NCBI GenBank assembly: GCA_963728205.1
Contig: CAVSIV010000001.1
Span: forward strand, 448,001 to 512,000
DNA: 64,000 nt
Direction of reading: 5' to 3'
Source of the DNA: an uncultured Chloroflexia bacterium
Lineage (GTDB): Bacteria > Chloroflexota > Dehalococcoidia > UBA2979
Both the position numbers and the translations under genes were made by a program. Of this stretch, positions 53,112 through 57,414 are shown one piece after another. Within the stretch, counting starts at the first letter, position 1; each line of letters opens with the position of its first letter. The notes beneath the pieces were generated by a model. It saw only the letters and a list, made by a program, of their open reading frames with translations. It was not told the DNA's origin and did not search any database.

Positions 53112-55586
53112 CTACTTCACCACGATGTTGAGCAGGCGGCCGGGGACGTAGATCACCCGCGCCACCGCGTGACCGGCGGTCTGCGCCGCGACCTGGGGAT
53201 GCCCCTCCGCCGCGGCACGGGCCGTGCCCTCGTCGGCGTCGGCCGGGATCTCGATGTGCCCCCGGACCTTGCCGTTCACCTGGACGGCGATCGTGACGTT
53301 CGCGCGCCGCGCCAGTGCCTCGTCGAACTCCGGCCACGGCTGGCGGTGCACGGAGTACGGGCGCCCGAGCCGCTCCCACAGCTCCTCGGCGATGTGCGGA
53401 CACGGCGGCGCCAGCATCAGCACGAGCCGCTCGCACGCGTCGCGCCACGCGTCGCCGTCGGCTTCGCCGGCGTCGCGGATGCGCTGCATCGCGTTCGTCA
53501 GCTCCATCATCGCGGCGATCATCGTGTTGAACTGGAACGCCTCGACGTCGCGCGTGACCCTGAGGCCGGTCTCGTGGACCAGCCGGCGCAGCTCCGCCGT
53601 GTCCGGCGCGTCCGGCTTCGCGACCAGCGCCGGCGGGTCGACGACCACGTTCCACACGCGGTTCAGCCAGCGGTAGACGCCGACGATGCCCTCGACGTCG
53701 TACGGCCCGCCCTGGTCCCACGGGCCCAGGAACATCAGGTAGGCGCGGAAGGTGTCGGCGCCCCACTGCGAGACCTGCGAGTCCGGCGCGATCACGTTGC
53801 CGCGCGACTTCGACATGCGGCGGCCGTCCGGGCCCAGGATCTGCCCCTGGCTGTAGTAGCGCGTGAACGGCTCGTCGCCGGGCACGATGCCCAGGTCGCG
53901 CGCGACCTTGTAGAAGAAGCGCGCGTACAGCAGGTGCATCACGGCGTGCTCGGAGCCCCCCGTGTACTGGTCGACCGGCAGCCACGTCTCGGCGGCGTCG
54001 CGCGAGACGGCCCGCTCCGGGTTGTGCGGGTCGGCGTAGCGCATGAAGTACCACGACGAGCACATGAAGGTGTCCATCGTGTCGGTCTCGCGCTTCGCCG
54101 GTTTGCCGCAGCGCGGGCAGGTGGTGTTCACGAAGTCGTCCGACAGCGACAGCGGCGACTGGCCGGTCGGCAGGAACTCGACGTCGTAGGGCAGCTCGAC
54201 GGGCAGCTGATCCTCGGGGACGGCGACGGCGCCGTGCTCGGGGCAGTAGACGATCGGGATCGGCGCGCCCCAGTAGCGCTGGCGCGAGATCAGCCAGTCA
54301 CGCAGACGGTAGTTCACCTTGCGTTCGCCGATGCCCTGCTCCTCCAGCCAGGCGATCGCGCGCTCGATGGCGGCGCCCTTCGAGAGGCCGTCGAGCCACT
54401 CGCTGTTGATGGCGACGCCATCGCCCGTGTATGGCTCGTCGCCCCAGCCGTCGGGCGGCTGGACGGTGCGGATGATCGGCAGGCCGTAGGCCTTCGCGAA
54501 ATCCCAGTCGCGCTGGTCCTCGGCGGGAACGGCCATGATCGCGCCGGTGCCGTACGAGGTCAGCACGTAGTCGGCCAGGTAGATCGGCACGGGCTGCGCG
54601 TTGAACGGGTTGATCGCGTACGCGCCCGTGAAGACCCCGCGCTTGTCCAGCGCGCCCTCCGTCGAGAGGCGCTCGATCTCGGTCTCGTGGCGAACGCGCT
54701 CGACGAACTCGTCGACGGCCATGCGCTGCTCGGGCGTCACGATCTGCTCGACGAGCTCGTGCTCGGGGGCGAGCACGGCGAACGTCATGCCGAACGACGT
54801 ATCCGGGCGCGTGGTGAAGACGCGCAGCCCGAGGTCGTCGTGGCCCTGGATGCGCATCGTGAACTCGGCGCCCTCCGAGCGGCCGATCCAGTTGCGCTGC
54901 ATCAGCTTCACGTGGTCGGGCCACTCCAGCGCTTCGTTCGCCAGCAGCTCCTCCGCGTAGTTCGTGATGCGGAAGAACCACTGCTCCATGTCGCGCGTCT
55001 CGACCAGCGTGTCGCAGCGCTCGCAGCGGCCGTTGACGACCTGCTCGTTGGCCAGCGTGGTGTTGCACGACGGGCAGAAGTTCGCCGGCGCGCGCCTGCG
55101 GTAGGCCAGCCCGCGCTCGAAGAACTGCGTGAACCACCACTGGGTCCAGCGGTAGTACTCGGGGGCGCTGGTGTTGACCTCGCGCTCCCAGTCGAACATC
55201 GCGCCCGTCGACTTCAGCTGGCTGCGCATGCGGTCGATGTTGGCGTTCGTCCAGTCGCGCGGGTGCGCGCCGCCCTTGATCGCGGCGTTCTCGGCGGGCA
55301 GGCCGAAGGCGTCGAAGCCGATCGGGAAGAGCACGTTGTAGCCGCGCATGCGGTAGTAGCGCGACAGGGTGTCGGACGGCGTCATCGCGAACCAGTGGCC
55401 GACGTGCAGGTCGCCCGACGTGTACGGGAACATGGTCAGGTGGTAGCGGTTGGGCCGTCCCTCGACGTGATCGGGGGTGCGATAGAGGTTGTCGGCCTCC
55501 CAGCGCTGTTGCCAGCGGGTCTCGATCGCGTCGGGCGCGTACCGGTCGGCGCCGGTCGTGGACTCGGTGGTGGATTCGGCAGTCAT
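53112..55586 (-). CDS. leuS: Leucyl-tRNA synthetase
   Basis: MFPYTSGDLHVGH, FTTRPDT, GTGAIMAVP, LRDWLISRQRYWG, RMSKS. Confidence 0.97.
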   Translation of the reverse strand: MTAESTTESTTGADRYAPDAIETRWQQRWEADNLYRTPDHVEGRPNRYHLTMFPYTSGDLHVGHWFAMTPSDTLSRYYRMRGYNVLFPIGFDAFGLPAENAAIKGGAHPRDWTNANIDRMRSQLKSTGAMFDWEREVNTSAPEYYRWTQWWFTQFFERGLAYRRRAPANFCPSCNTTLANEQVVNGRCERCDTLVETRDMEQWFFRITNYAEELLANEALEWPDHVKLMQRNWIGRSEGAEFTMRIQGHDDLGLRVFTTRPDTSFGMTFAVLAPEHELVEQIVTPEQRMAVDEFVERVRHETEIERLSTEGALDKRGVFTGAYAINPFNAQPVPIYLADYVLTSYGTGAIMAVPAEDQRDWDFAKAYGLPIIRTVQPPDGWGDEPYTGDGVAINSEWLDGLSKGAAIERAIAWLEEQGIGERKVNYRLRDWLISRQRYWGAPIPIVYCPEHGAVAVPEDQLPVELPYDVEFLPTGQSPLSLSDDFVNTTCPRCGKPAKRETDTMDTFMCSSWYFMRYADPHNPERAVSRDAAETWLPVDQYTGGSEHAVMHLLYARFFYKVARDLGIVPGDEPFTRYYSQGQILGPDGRRMSKSRGNVIAPDSQVSQWGADTFRAYLMFLGPWDQGGPYDVEGIVGVYRWLNRVWNVVVDPPALVAKPDAPDTAELRRLVHETGLRVTRDVEAFQFNTMIAAMMELTNAMQRIRDAGEADGDAWRDACERLVLMLAPPCPHIAEELWERLGRPYSVHRQPWPEFDEALARRANVTIAVQVNGKVRGHIEIPADADEGTARAAAEGHPQVAAQTAGHAVARVIYVPGRLLNIVVK

Positions 55587-55716
55587 CGCTCTCGTCTTCC
55601 CGGGTGGCGCGCCGCGCGGGCATGCCCTGCGGTGAACCGGCGGGCGCGCGCTGAGTGTACGTGAGGCACCCGCCACGCGGGCGCGGGCGATCCTCCCGGC
55701 AGACCGGGCGGATCGC

Positions 55717-55800
55717 CTAGGTAAGGACGAGGAGCGTTCGCGCCGGCCGGGGGCCGGCGACGCGGGGGAGGTGCGCGGTGAACGGACGTATCGCGTTCAT
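55717..55800 (-). CDS. Putative leuS leader peptide, 27 aa
   Basis: MNAIRPFTAHLPRVAGPRPARTLLVLT*; ATG 8 nt after GATACT; ends CTC CTC GTC CTT ACC TAG. Confidence 0.7.
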   Translation of the reverse strand: MNAIRPFTAHLPRVAGPRPARTLLVLT

Positions 55801-55808
55801 GGAGTGCC

Positions 55809-55838
55809 AGTATCCCGGTGGGTGCGAGAGGGCGTCAA
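55809..55838 (-). promoter_or_regulatory. leuS leader promoter
   Basis: TTGACG-N18-GATACT. Confidence 0.65.
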
Positions 55839-55926
55839 CCGAACGCGAGGCGAGGCGCGGGGACGGGTGCTCCGGGCGGTCTGGAGGAGCGCGGAAGGTG
55901 CGTGGAGCGGGCCCGCGGGGCGCGCC

Positions 55927-56103
55927 CTAGAAGGCGACCAGGATGAGGACGACGAGCAGCGGAACGCCCAGGGACACGACGAGCAGCAGGGTGCGGGCCT
56001 GGCGCAGGCGCGCCTCCGGGGAGCGGGTGACGAGCGTGCGCCGCGCCTGCCAGAGCGTGGCGACGACGTACAGCACGAAGAGCGCGACGAGGATCGGGAT
56101 CAT
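55927..56103 (-). CDS. 58-aa two-TM membrane protein
   Basis: Not in ORF track; MIPILVALFVLYVVATLWQARRTLVTRSPEARLRQARTLLLVVSLGVPLLVVLILVAF; GC3-rich codons; TATCAT 8 nt upstream. Confidence 0.8.
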   Translation of the reverse strand: MIPILVALFVLYVVATLWQARRTLVTRSPEARLRQARTLLLVVSLGVPLLVVLILVAF

Positions 56104-56220
56104 CGCCCGGGATGATAGCCGCGCCCGCGGTCACGGGGGAGCGGTTCCCGGCTCCCCGGCGTGCGCACGGTCGCGAGGCATGGCACCCTCAATCGGCGCG
56201 GCGGCGGAAGGCGGGGCAGC

Positions 56221-57414
56221 GTGGTCGAGGTCGGTGGCGGCGGCGGGGCGGACCGCGACGCCGCGGTCGTGGTGGTGGGCGCCGGCGTGGTGGGCCTCGC
56301 GGTCGCGGCGCGCCTCGCCGAGCGCCACAGCGTGATCGTCCTCGAGCGGAACGACTCCTTCGCGCGCGAGACCAGTTCGCACAACACCGGCATCGTGCAC
56401 GCCGGCATGTTCTACGTGACCGGCTCGCTGAAGCACCGGCTCTGCCTCGAGGGCAACCGGCTGATGTACGCGTGGTGCGAGGCGCACTCGGTGCGCTGCG
56501 AGCGCACCGGCAAGCTGATCGTGGCGCTCTCCGCCGACGACCTCGGCGGGCTCGACGCGCTCATGGACCGCGCCGAGCGCAACGGCGTCCCGGGGATGTC
56601 GCGGCTCGACGGCGCGCGGGCGCGCGCGATGGAGCCGGCGATCCCCGCGGTCGCCGCGCTGTACTCGGAGACGTCGGGCGTGGTCGACCAGTGGGGGTAC
56701 GCGCGCTCGCTGGAGGCGGCGGCACGCGCGCACGGCGCGCTCGTCGCGTACCGCCACGCGCTGCGCGCGGTCGAGCGGGACGGCGACGGCTTTCGCCTGC
56801 GCCTCGCGGACCCGGACGGCGCGGACGCCGAGCTGCGCTGCGGCGTGCTGGTCAACGCCGCCGGCCACGGCGCGCCGGGGGTGGCGGCGGCGCTCGGCTA
56901 CCCGCTCGACGGCAATCGCGCGCGCGACGTGCCGCCGCTGCGGCAGCGCGCGAACAAGGGCCGCTACTACGACTTCGCGCGTCCGGAGCTCGCACGGGTG
57001 GTGTCGCGGCCGGTCTACCCAATCCCGCCGCAGGCGAAGACGGTGCTCGGCCACCAGGCGTCGGCCGGCGGGCTGGGCATGCACCTCAGCGTCGACATCG
57101 ACGGGGTCGCGCACCTCGGTCCCGACACCGAGTGGCTCGCCGACGACGCGCCGCGCGACTACCGCGCCGACGACACGCGCCGCGCGTCGTTCGTCGAGGC
57201 GGGGCGGCGGATGCTGCCGGACCTCGCACCCGACGACCTCGTGCCGGGGCAGGTGGGGTACCGGCCGAAGCTCGTCGGCGATCCCGGCAGCGACGCACCG
57301 CCGGACTTCCTGATCTGGCCGGACCGCGGGTACGTGCACCTGGGCGGCATCGAGTCGCCCGGGCTCACGTCGAGCCTCGCGATCGCGCGCGATGTGAGCG
57401 ACATCGTCGGCTGA
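56221..57414 (+). CDS. FAD-dependent oxidoreductase, L-2-hydroxyglutarate oxidase-like
   Basis: VGAGVVG, ETSSHNTG.VHAG, KG.YY, VYP.P, GYRPK, GIESPGLTSS. Confidence 0.85.
   Translation: MVEVGGGGGADRDAAVVVVGAGVVGLAVAARLAERHSVIVLERNDSFARETSSHNTGIVHAGMFYVTGSLKHRLCLEGNRLMYAWCEAHSVRCERTGKLIVALSADDLGGLDALMDRAERNGVPGMSRLDGARARAMEPAIPAVAALYSETSGVVDQWGYARSLEAAARAHGALVAYRHALRAVERDGDGFRLRLADPDGADAELRCGVLVNAAGHGAPGVAAALGYPLDGNRARDVPPLRQRANKGRYYDFARPELARVVSRPVYPIPPQAKTVLGHQASAGGLGMHLSVDIDGVAHLGPDTEWLADDAPRDYRADDTRRASFVEAGRRMLPDLAPDDLVPGQVGYRPKLVGDPGSDAPPDFLIWPDRGYVHLGGIESPGLTSSLAIARDVSDIVG

Follow-up and report, generated by a model that had tools for sequence, protein, structure and literature searches.

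Classical attenuators, consisting of a leader peptide, an antiterminator and a U-tract terminator, have been predicted upstream of leuS in Streptomyces avermitilis and S. coelicolor, as stated in the accessible part of that study (PMC1262725). In S. lividans, leuL2 encodes a leaderless peptide of 12 residues, three of them Leu, upstream of leuS and is followed by a terminator, according to the excerpted text of the paper (PMC8079986). The LEU element, found upstream of actinobacterial leuA (Seliverstov et al. 2005), is different in that the Leu-codon run of the leader open reading frame (ORF) pairs with the Shine-Dalgarno (SD) box, as far as the excerpt of that paper goes (PMC1262725). T-boxes are known in Chloroflexi, going by the available portion of a further paper (PMC3766115). 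Here we analyse a leader upstream of leuS, the gene of leucine--tRNA ligase (LeuRS), in a 64-kb stretch of DNA from an uncultured bacterium of the Chloroflexota (contig CAVSIV010000001.1 of assembly GCA_963728205.1). This stretch is called the window below, its genome (72% G+C) is labelled G000, and all coordinates of the element refer to the minus strand of the window. The leader ORF, together with a set of RNA hairpins, probably tunes LeuRS synthesis to the supply of charged leucine tRNA.

A sequence-only reading of the window, which we followed up, had listed a promoter, a leaderless ORF of 27 residues ending in Leu-Leu-Val-Leu-Thr-stop, a hairpin of 13 base pairs (bp) and a long-range helix, and every one of these items was found again in its place (Table 1). 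As in leader-peptide attenuators, the gene is preceded, at a distance of 130 nucleotides (nt), by a short ORF that opens the putative transcript, and three of the last five sense codons of this ORF are Leu codons (CTC CTC GTC CTT), i.e. it carries a cluster of cognate codons. The TTGACG/GATACT pair is the sole sigma-70-like site in 55300-56300 (mean 0.0 in 50 shuffles) and presumably acts as the leader promoter. The −10 hexamer stands so close to the leader ATG (8 nt) that a leaderless or almost leaderless transcript would be expected. A strict regular expression (TTGAC[GCT]-18-GATACT-like) matches 30 of the 39 orthologous leaders introduced below, with a spacing of 5-9 nt between the −10 hexamer and the ATG; the remaining nine were inspected by eye, and the TTGAC box is not present in all of them. 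The identity of the downstream gene is clear, as LeuRS scores 955.9 bits against the equivalog TIGR00396 (cut-off 548.4), and leuS is single-copy in G000 (one match in the search).

Table 1. Positions of the leader features and of leuS in the window, and of the related ilvB leader in the same genome
Feature	Position	Strand	Remarks
−35-like hexamer TTGACG, putative leader promoter	55833..55838	minus	sigma-70-like site scan
−10-like hexamer GATACT	55809..55814	minus	18 nt from TTGACG; ATG 55800 starts 8 nt later
Leader ORF, 27 codons + TAG, MNAIRPFTAHLPRVAGPRPARTLLVLT-stop	55717..55800	minus	ATG 55800, TAG 55719-55717; ends Leu-Leu-Val-Leu-Thr
Sensor codons CTC CTC GTC CTT (ACC T), P1 5′ arm, anti-SD-like	55719..55736	minus	minimum free energy fold
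Hairpin H1, 13 bp	55686..55717	minus	first pair uses G of the TAG stop; minimum free energy fold
Hairpin H2, 8 bp, GCGCCCGC GTG GCGGGTGC	55666..55684	minus	minimum free energy fold; no U tract after it
TACACT	55654..55659	minus	within block CA(C/T)(G/A)TACACTC (55650-55665); possibly internal −10
Hairpin H3, 13 bp in the minimum free energy fold	55607..55649	minus	varies among orthologues
GGGAAGACGAGAGCG, P1 3′ arm, leuS positions −15 to −1	55587..55601	minus	minimum free energy fold; ribosome-binding region
leuS, leucine--tRNA ligase, 824 aa	53112..55586	minus	ATG 55586; TIGR00396
ilvB leader L002	G000 contig C6 ~1501905-1502140	minus	outside the window; same promoter type, H1, H2

The minimum free energy (MFE) fold of 55803-55560 (−116.1 kcal/mol, z = −2.34) consists of four helices, P1, H1, H2 and H3. 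P1 comprises 15 bp between 55736-55719 and 55601-55587 with three single-base bulges, all in the 5′ arm; folding yielded exactly the helix with three bulges that had been proposed between the Leu codons and the region before the leuS ATG. A base stem of the LEU-element type, joining the Leu-codon run to the downstream SD region, is therefore present, as the 15-bp P1 here and as its counterparts in 26-27 of the 39 orthologues. With somewhat better than even confidence, we read the element as a ribosome-mediated, leucyl-tRNA-sensing attenuator that acts mainly on the initiation of leuS translation. The basis for this reading is the observed anatomy, the conserved frame, codons, stop and H1, the recurrence of P1 and the paralogy with a leader of ilvB. 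What we infer, in the following way, is where transcription starts, that the leader is translated, that ribosomes stall on it, that leucine supply is sensed and that Rho may play a part. Transcription would begin at or a few bases from the leader ATG, and a ribosome would translate the 27-codon leader. With plentiful Leu-tRNA(GAG) it would read CUC CUC GUC CUU, terminate at UAG and leave, after which the RNA would fold into H1, H2 and H3, with P1 as the closing helix, in which the Leu/Val codons (anti-SD-like CUCGUCCUU) would pair with leuS positions −15 to −1 and hide the ribosome-binding site (RBS). With charged tRNA-Leu scarce, owing to low leucine or low LeuRS, the ribosome would stall on CUC/CUU and cover the 5′ arm of P1, so that the leuS RBS would be open and more LeuRS would be made. 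Untranslated leuS RNA after the C-rich spacer may be cut short by Rho, reinforcing the effect.

The leader is shared by many relatives. LeuRS searches in 40 relatives, combined with a peptide filter for leader ORFs (at least three Leu in the last eight residues), identified such an ORF ahead of leuS in the window and at 10 further loci, and all leuS leaders found by their peptide share CTC NNN CTT ANN TAG GCG. We then scanned 99 family genomes for CTCNNNCTTANNTAGGCG, with the reversed pattern as control. The pattern has matches in 53 of these genomes, 82 in all by our tally compared with 13 for the reversed control; as the census is pattern-based, more diverged leaders may be missed. Matches of the CTCGTACTTA type number 42 in 41 genomes, and of the 18 that were fetched, all 18 lie upstream of ilvB. 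Matches with GTC, CTC, GCC, GCG or GGC as the middle codon number 40 in 40 genomes, from 15 of the 21 family genera, and all were fetched. One of them (L057) is cut by the end of its contig; the 39 with downstream sequence are upstream of leuS without exception. Judged by this conservation, the element is a conserved cis-regulatory leader.

All 39 leuS leaders have, after the −10-like hexamer, a start codon (38 ATG, one GTG) that shares its frame with the Leu codons and TAG. Two of them (L065 and L066) have a longer 5′ untranslated region (UTR) and an SD-like GAGGAA box of their own before the leader ATG. The peptides are between about 8 and 29 residues long, and their N-terminal sequence is not conserved. 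What is kept in 39/39 is the frame, the Leu codons, the stop and the following hairpin, and to that extent the idea of a leader ORF with conserved Leu codons holds, while the N-terminus and the length are free to vary. The ORF behaves as a translated one, and the indirect evidence that it is translated is good. CTC at position −4, CTT at −2 and TAG are present in 39 of 39 leaders, a regularity fixed by the search pattern; all 10 leaders found independently by their peptide have the same three features. Position −3 is occupied by Val in 26 leaders, Leu in 6, Ala in 6 and Gly in 1. Both CUC and CUU are read by a single tRNA-Leu(GAG) gene. CTT accounts for 2.5% of Leu codons in G000, and GTA, the codon of the ilvB copy, for 2.9% of Val codons (624 long ORFs in both cases).

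These codons also bear on another explanation, namely that the leader is a constitutive upstream ORF whose translation unfolds the 5′ UTR or aids re-initiation and sets a fixed level of leuS expression, with no sensing of leucine. There are only three Leu codons in the window leader, and the tolerance of Val, Ala, Leu and Gly at −3 is explained equally well by RNA pairing and by an amino-acid constraint. It has also been proposed, in the accessible text of one paper (PMC4833913), that leader ORFs enhance expression in general. We nevertheless find such a fixed role improbable. The association is specific to leuS and ilvB, which carry the genome's two copies, and the Leu codons kept are those of one tRNA, the rare CUU included. 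Leu also recurs at −5 (22/39 leaders) and at −6 (18/39), neither of which is fixed by the pattern, and a Leu T-box stands at the same place in sister families.

The distribution of the element corrects the sequence-only reading in one respect, since that reading had presumed an actinobacterial lineage. The host belongs to Chloroflexota, class Dehalococcoidia. Across 185,579 species genomes CTCGTCCTTANNTAGGCG has 53 matches, of which 26 are upstream of leuS, and 25 of these 26 are in records titled Dehalococcoidia, Chloroflexota, Chloroflexi or Dehalococcoidaceae. The one left over (L109) is in a metagenome-assembled genome (MAG) titled 'uncultured Actinomycetes'. The other 27 matches, in unrelated taxa and without leuS downstream, are what chance would produce. 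In a class-wide sample the pattern matched 12 of 25 family genomes compared with 5 of 375 genomes from 87 other families, and the rate outside the family is no higher than that of the reversed-pattern control there. Neither this class-wide pattern scan nor a scan around genome G115 revealed further large groups bearing the motif. Six genera of the family have neither leader type; one of them has 19 genomes and three are A+T-rich with small genomes. The latter three (L022, L024 and L028) have A+T-rich leuS regions and genomes of 1.2-1.9 Mb, in sharp contrast to the window genome. Two family members without a leader ORF (L017 and L021) keep the promoter only, and three others have degenerate leaders (L011, L012 and L018).

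In the window sequence alone, P1 is only modestly better than chance at 72% G+C: the duplex by itself (−18.5 kcal/mol) is equalled by 2.2% of 18,280 equal-length windows in the 64 kb and its score by 1.85% of 2,000 shuffles of the 3′ arm, i.e. it lies in a 2% tail. Because the single sequence is barely above chance, the case for P1 rests on the orthologues. In the MFE folds of 27 of the 39 leaders the codon/stop segment forms at least five pairs with −20..+3 of leuS. When the 16-nt codon segment is compared with the last 25 nt ahead of the start, a perfect Watson-Crick run of at least 6 is found in 26/39 leaders (8.4% of shuffles) and a run of at least 7 in 20/39 (2.2% of shuffles); by this test P1 is supported in 10 of 15 genera. 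Among ilvB leaders a run of at least 6 is present in 3 of 18, and ilvB arms set against leuS pre-start regions give it in 2.6% of pairs. On rigid MAFFT columns of the 39 leaders the seven core pairs of P1 are 77% paired, and two of them are changed on both sides, seven cells in all. Cognate arms pair better than non-cognate ones (−13.7 vs −12.7 kcal/mol; 12 of 5,000 permutations match), kinship among the leaders inflating this figure. A purine-rich (A)GGACGAG-like motif precedes the ATG in most leuS orthologues. It is likely to be the RBS, and it is at the same time the complement of CUCGUCCU. We also modelled a stalled ribosome as a mask with a footprint of −15 to +14 around the A site on CUU and computed the energy needed to open leuS −16..+5. 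Masking lowers the computed opening energy from 14.5 to 9.7 kcal/mol in the window leader and from 10.5 to 8.3 kcal/mol in the mean of the 39 leaders, and the drop exceeds 2 kcal/mol in 20 of them.

Against this stand the modest single-sequence score and several further observations. RNAalifold on the unbiased alignment does not keep P1 and returns H1 only. A run of at least 6 is missing in 13/39 leaders and in 5/15 genera, and P1 is absent from 12/39 MFE folds. In one P1-poor genus the partner of the RBS region is a GCCCUCG segment that comes earlier in the leader ORF. Duplex energies compared with shuffles have a mean z of only −1.2, and 11/39 leaders fall in the 5% tail. Motifs like GACGAG or GACGGGA also precede leuS in family members that have no leader ORF (L020, L021). 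Runs of CUC/CUU naturally resemble an anti-SD sequence, so that part of the pairing comes for free. Even when masked, the window leader keeps an opening energy of 9.7 kcal/mol, and in 14/39 leaders masking yields a drop of at most 0.5 kcal/mol. H1 and H2, the best-conserved parts of the leader, find no explanation in a model built on the RBS. Moreover, when leader codons of ilvB and leuA were mutated in S. coelicolor, the outcome departed from the prediction of classical attenuation, as reported in the accessible part of that work (PMC1262725). The pairing of Leu codons with the RBS, as claimed from the window sequence, thus recurs in about two-thirds of the orthologues, with some compensatory change, and is weak or absent in 13/39. 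Likewise, the covariation expected of the two arms is there in modest form, in the two core pairs changed on both sides; RNAalifold keeps only H1. The proposal that a stalled ribosome frees the RBS stands as the best single reading for the locus, with the reservations that the regulated step may be transcription and that H1 and H2 are left unexplained.

H1 is the best-supported RNA structure of the element because of its pairing and covariation and because it is the sole helix that RNAalifold recovers. On the MAFFT alignment of the 39 leuS leaders 95.8% of the cells of H1 are paired and 6 of 11 pairs are changed on both sides. The whole structure tested (P1 + H1) is 88.5% paired on the same alignment when unslid and 34-66% when slid, and all five measures are above every one of 500 shuffles. 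In many leuS and ilvB leaders H1 is followed by hairpins of the form CCCGCG..CGGG, resembling H2. In the distal half of the spacer that separates H1 from leuS, C averages 0.44 and G 0.29 over the 39 leaders, and C is at least 1.5 times G in 20 of them. Both the window spacer (55602-55665) and the orthologous spacers have the C-rich, G-poor composition expected of a Rho loading site.

The origin of the leader becomes clearer from a paralogue in the same genome. Compared with G000 itself, the 255-nt leader has one further match, with 79% identity over ~65 nt (E 5e-7) on contig C6. Downstream of this second leader (L002), at a distance of 129 nt, come an ilvB-like gene and then ilvN-like and leuA-like ORFs; the three were assigned by N-terminal sequence and the LeuA_dimer domain only. 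Its ORF, again starting at the 5′ end, is MTRTHILTGATSQTAILRGLDLLVLVLT-stop and ends in LDLLVLVLT-stop with the rare codons GTA and CTT. The ending CTT ACC TAG GCG, H1 and H2 are common to both leaders, and in L002 H2 is followed by TTTCCATGT. The two are the only copies of the module in G000. By its sequence the leuS leader is a duplicate of a branched-chain amino-acid leader, and a chance ORF is hard to reconcile with such a duplication. The copies have the promoter type, the start of the ORF at the 5′ end, the ending LVLT-stop with CTT ACC TAG, H1 and H2 in common. They differ in the codons, as ilvB copies have CTC GTA CTC GTA CTT with the rare Val codon GTA, whereas in leuS copies GTC, CTC or GCC gives an anti-SD-like UCCUU. 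They differ also in what follows: ilvB copies generally retain a U-rich tail behind H2, and few of them (3/18) pair with the RBS, while leuS copies are mostly without a U tail and 26/39 pair with the RBS.

The U-rich tails point to the main rival of the mechanism proposed above, transcriptional attenuation, in which the leader senses Leu-tRNA in the same way but the regulated step is premature termination between leader and leuS, and P1 is secondary or incidental. Termination would occur either at H2, as a weak terminator or pause site devoid of a U tract, or through Rho loading on the C-rich spacer, the composition of which fits. Among the ilvB paralogues 12/18 reach at least 4 T in 8 nt, and 11 of these tails come directly after H2, typically as TTTTCGTGT; the same density is reached by 9/39 leuS leaders. 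More distant relatives have full terminators. In L109 (= L136), the LeuRS of which is ~49% identical to that of the window in its N-terminus, an ORF ending in ALLVLI-stop and H1 are followed by a 10-bp stem and UUUUUCUUU directly upstream of leuS. Of 81 genomes sampled around L109 five have the pattern, three of them upstream of leuS (L136, L139 and L140), and all three show the module (Leu codons, CTT Axx TAG, H1) with such a canonical terminator; the third case, L140, is from an unpublished genome (G120). With the pattern used, the combination of Leu codons, TAG, H1 and canonical terminator was thus seen in only 3/81 sampled genomes of this lineage, which goes under the title 'uncultured Actinomycetes'. 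The published Streptomyces leuS attenuators are likewise of the terminator type, according to the accessible parts of both papers (PMC1262725, PMC8079986). From the terminators in distant homologous leaders and the U-rich tails of the ilvB copies it follows that the older output of the module was probably transcription termination, which counts against the translational reading, and some leuS leaders may still use termination.

For the window leader we nevertheless regard transcriptional attenuation as rather unlikely. No hairpin-plus-U-tract terminator was found in the window scan, and no 8-nt window of the spacer has more than two T, so the earlier statement that a U-tract terminator is lacking was right. 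The combination that defines a classical attenuator, an intrinsic terminator and a competing antiterminator between the ORF and the gene, is not present. The site of stalling would be ~50-65 nt from the 3′ end of H2, too far for direct occlusion. In thermodynamic folds of terminator-bearing relatives (14 analysed, 13 interpretable, the cut window of L002 having lost the hairpin) the stalled-ribosome mask never lowered the probability of the terminator hairpin, and hence no antiterminator is evident. The classical antiterminator model, based on alternative structures, was for this reason not adopted. According to these folds the terminator-bearing relatives (ilvB-type, L136 and L139) do not fit a classical attenuator.

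T-boxes provide a further comparison at the same gene. An Rfam scan of 55000-56600 returned no T-box (RF00230) at E<=10, in agreement with the T-box independence assumed for the window leader, and from the other Rfam 15 families only three unrelated matches at chance level (E 0.34-1.3). At the gathering score, 20 related loci gave no Rfam matches other than tRNAs. In two other families of the class, full-length T-box matches are found upstream of leuS: L030 1225-1476 with 79.3 bits (E 2.7e-16) and L031 1154-1380 with 85.5 bits (E 6.8e-18). Both are below the gathering score of 93 bits, and annotation at that score would therefore miss them. They serve as positive controls for the T-box scan of the window leader. 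The triplet at the specifier position reads CUC in both, by our reading of the alignment, and the T-boxes of these sister families thus appear to read the same tRNA as the CUC/CUU codons of the leader. Four other loci of the class, six leader-less family loci and L109 have no T-box at E<=0.01. The sole T-box-like match in G000 (L146, G000:C1:283660-283934, plus strand, 44 bits, E 2.8e-8) is upstream of a gene for anthranilate synthase component I (trpE-like).

The compact multi-helical architecture, with a closing stem that overlaps the RBS, would also suit a structured RNA bound by a protein (e.g. LeuRS autoregulation, cf. E. coli thrS), by tRNA or by a small ligand, the ORF being incidental and P1 the closing stem that hides the RBS. 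The H2 loops are alike in many leaders, and a similar argument has been made for the LEU element, in the accessible portion of the study (PMC1262725). We consider a bound RNA of this kind very improbable for the leuS leader. From leader to leader, the part that separates H1 from P1 differs greatly in its length (74-135 nt) and its sequence, and no unpaired positions in it are conserved across genera. The frame is kept in 39/39 leaders, which is not expected of an incidental ORF, and, as said above, no Rfam family matches the leader.

As for the history of the leader, we tentatively suggest, and hold it possible rather than probable, that one family of Dehalococcoidia swapped the Leu T-box of leuS for a duplicated ilvB attenuator and rewired it from a terminator to RBS sequestration. 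In the rewiring step, a change of GUA to GUC would have made the Val-Leu codons an anti-SD (UCCUU) while the U tract decayed. If this is true, a T-box, a transcriptional attenuator and a translational attenuator have succeeded one another at one gene, and all three read the same tRNA-Leu(GAG). The relatives present a natural series for the exchange and rewiring of RNA sensors of tRNA charging. It runs from an ilvB paralogue that has the U-rich tail, through leuS copies which in a few genera have it too, to those which in most genera have the RBS-hiding helix. In sister families a T-box stands at the same position of leuS. The element also adds a well-conserved RNA leader without an Rfam family, in a phylum that is almost entirely uncultured. 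In practical terms, annotation of these MAGs gains from the leader ORF and the promoter motif, which help to place the starts of leuS and ilvB and to recognise leaderless transcripts.

Some further features of the region concern starts of transcription and translation. An alternative transcription start at TACACT, bypassing the leader, had been raised from the sequence. The scan of 55300-56300 found no −35 partner for it, and the block CA(C/T)(G/A)TACACTC is restricted to the genus, whose four leaders (own, L005, L007 and L008) share it although the flanking H3 sequences differ; the other 35 leaders do not have it. TACACT could be an internal −10 or a structural element, and these data neither support nor exclude the alternative start. 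An in-frame GTG at 55676 was considered as the leuS start and rejected because the 39 orthologues begin with M-T/A-T/A-E/D at the ATG. Directly upstream of the leader promoter, at 55927-56103 on the minus strand, there is an ORF of 58 aa encoding a hydrophobic peptide (MIPILVALF...VLILVAF) that has no NCBIfam family match. Similar small ORFs precede leuS in many family members, even in A+T-rich ones (L022).

Compared with what is already described, the novelty of the element is smaller than had been claimed from the sequence, as both leader peptides of leuS in Streptomyces and a Leu-codon/SD stem at leuA are in print, in the accessible parts of the two papers (PMC1262725, PMC8079986). The Streptomyces leuS attenuators share with the window leader a short leaderless ORF, three Leu codons and the lack of a T-box, as described in the available text (PMC8079986, PMC1262725). 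Their terminator hairpin has a U stretch and is accompanied by an antiterminator, whereas in the window there is no U tract and the Leu codons pair with the leuS RBS. The peptides are unrelated (MRAVRLLLSEPR in Streptomyces, ...TLLVLT in the window), and the phylum differs (Chloroflexota), again going by those accessible texts. The window element is not of the classical type because the terminator feature is lacking. The LEU element, as its published description stands in the excerpt, controls leuA in Actinobacteria, while the window element would control leuS in Chloroflexota. The window element is set apart by this description, since gene and phylum differ and since the LEU-type pseudoknot or alternative hairpin was not seen in the window leader, the interior of which consists of ordinary hairpins varying among genera (no specific search for it was made). 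Leader peptides at the 5′ end of transcripts are also located upstream of genes for aminoacyl-tRNA synthetases, e.g. cysS, and of amino-acid genes in Deinococcus deserti, a member of a different phylum, and the accessible part of that paper proposes them as transcription attenuators (PMC4007540). Our literature searches turned up no publication in which leuS or ilvB of Chloroflexota is controlled by a leader peptide.

The T-box (RF00230) upstream of leuS has the same regulated gene and the same signal, tRNA-Leu charging via a CUC codon, as proposed for the window leader, but it binds tRNA directly and has no ORF, whereas the window leader has no T-box match. In translational attenuation of the ermC/cat type, the helix that masks the downstream RBS is opened by a ribosome stalling within a short leader ORF, and the stalling is caused by an antibiotic together with the nascent peptide, not by lack of charged tRNA. 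The mechanism proposed for the window leader would work like the ermC/cat type and would differ in the cause of the stall. As leader peptides of leuS and Leu-codon/SD stems have already been published, the window element is a variant of known control. By its sequence it would be a known type of control in a lineage and an arrangement not described before.

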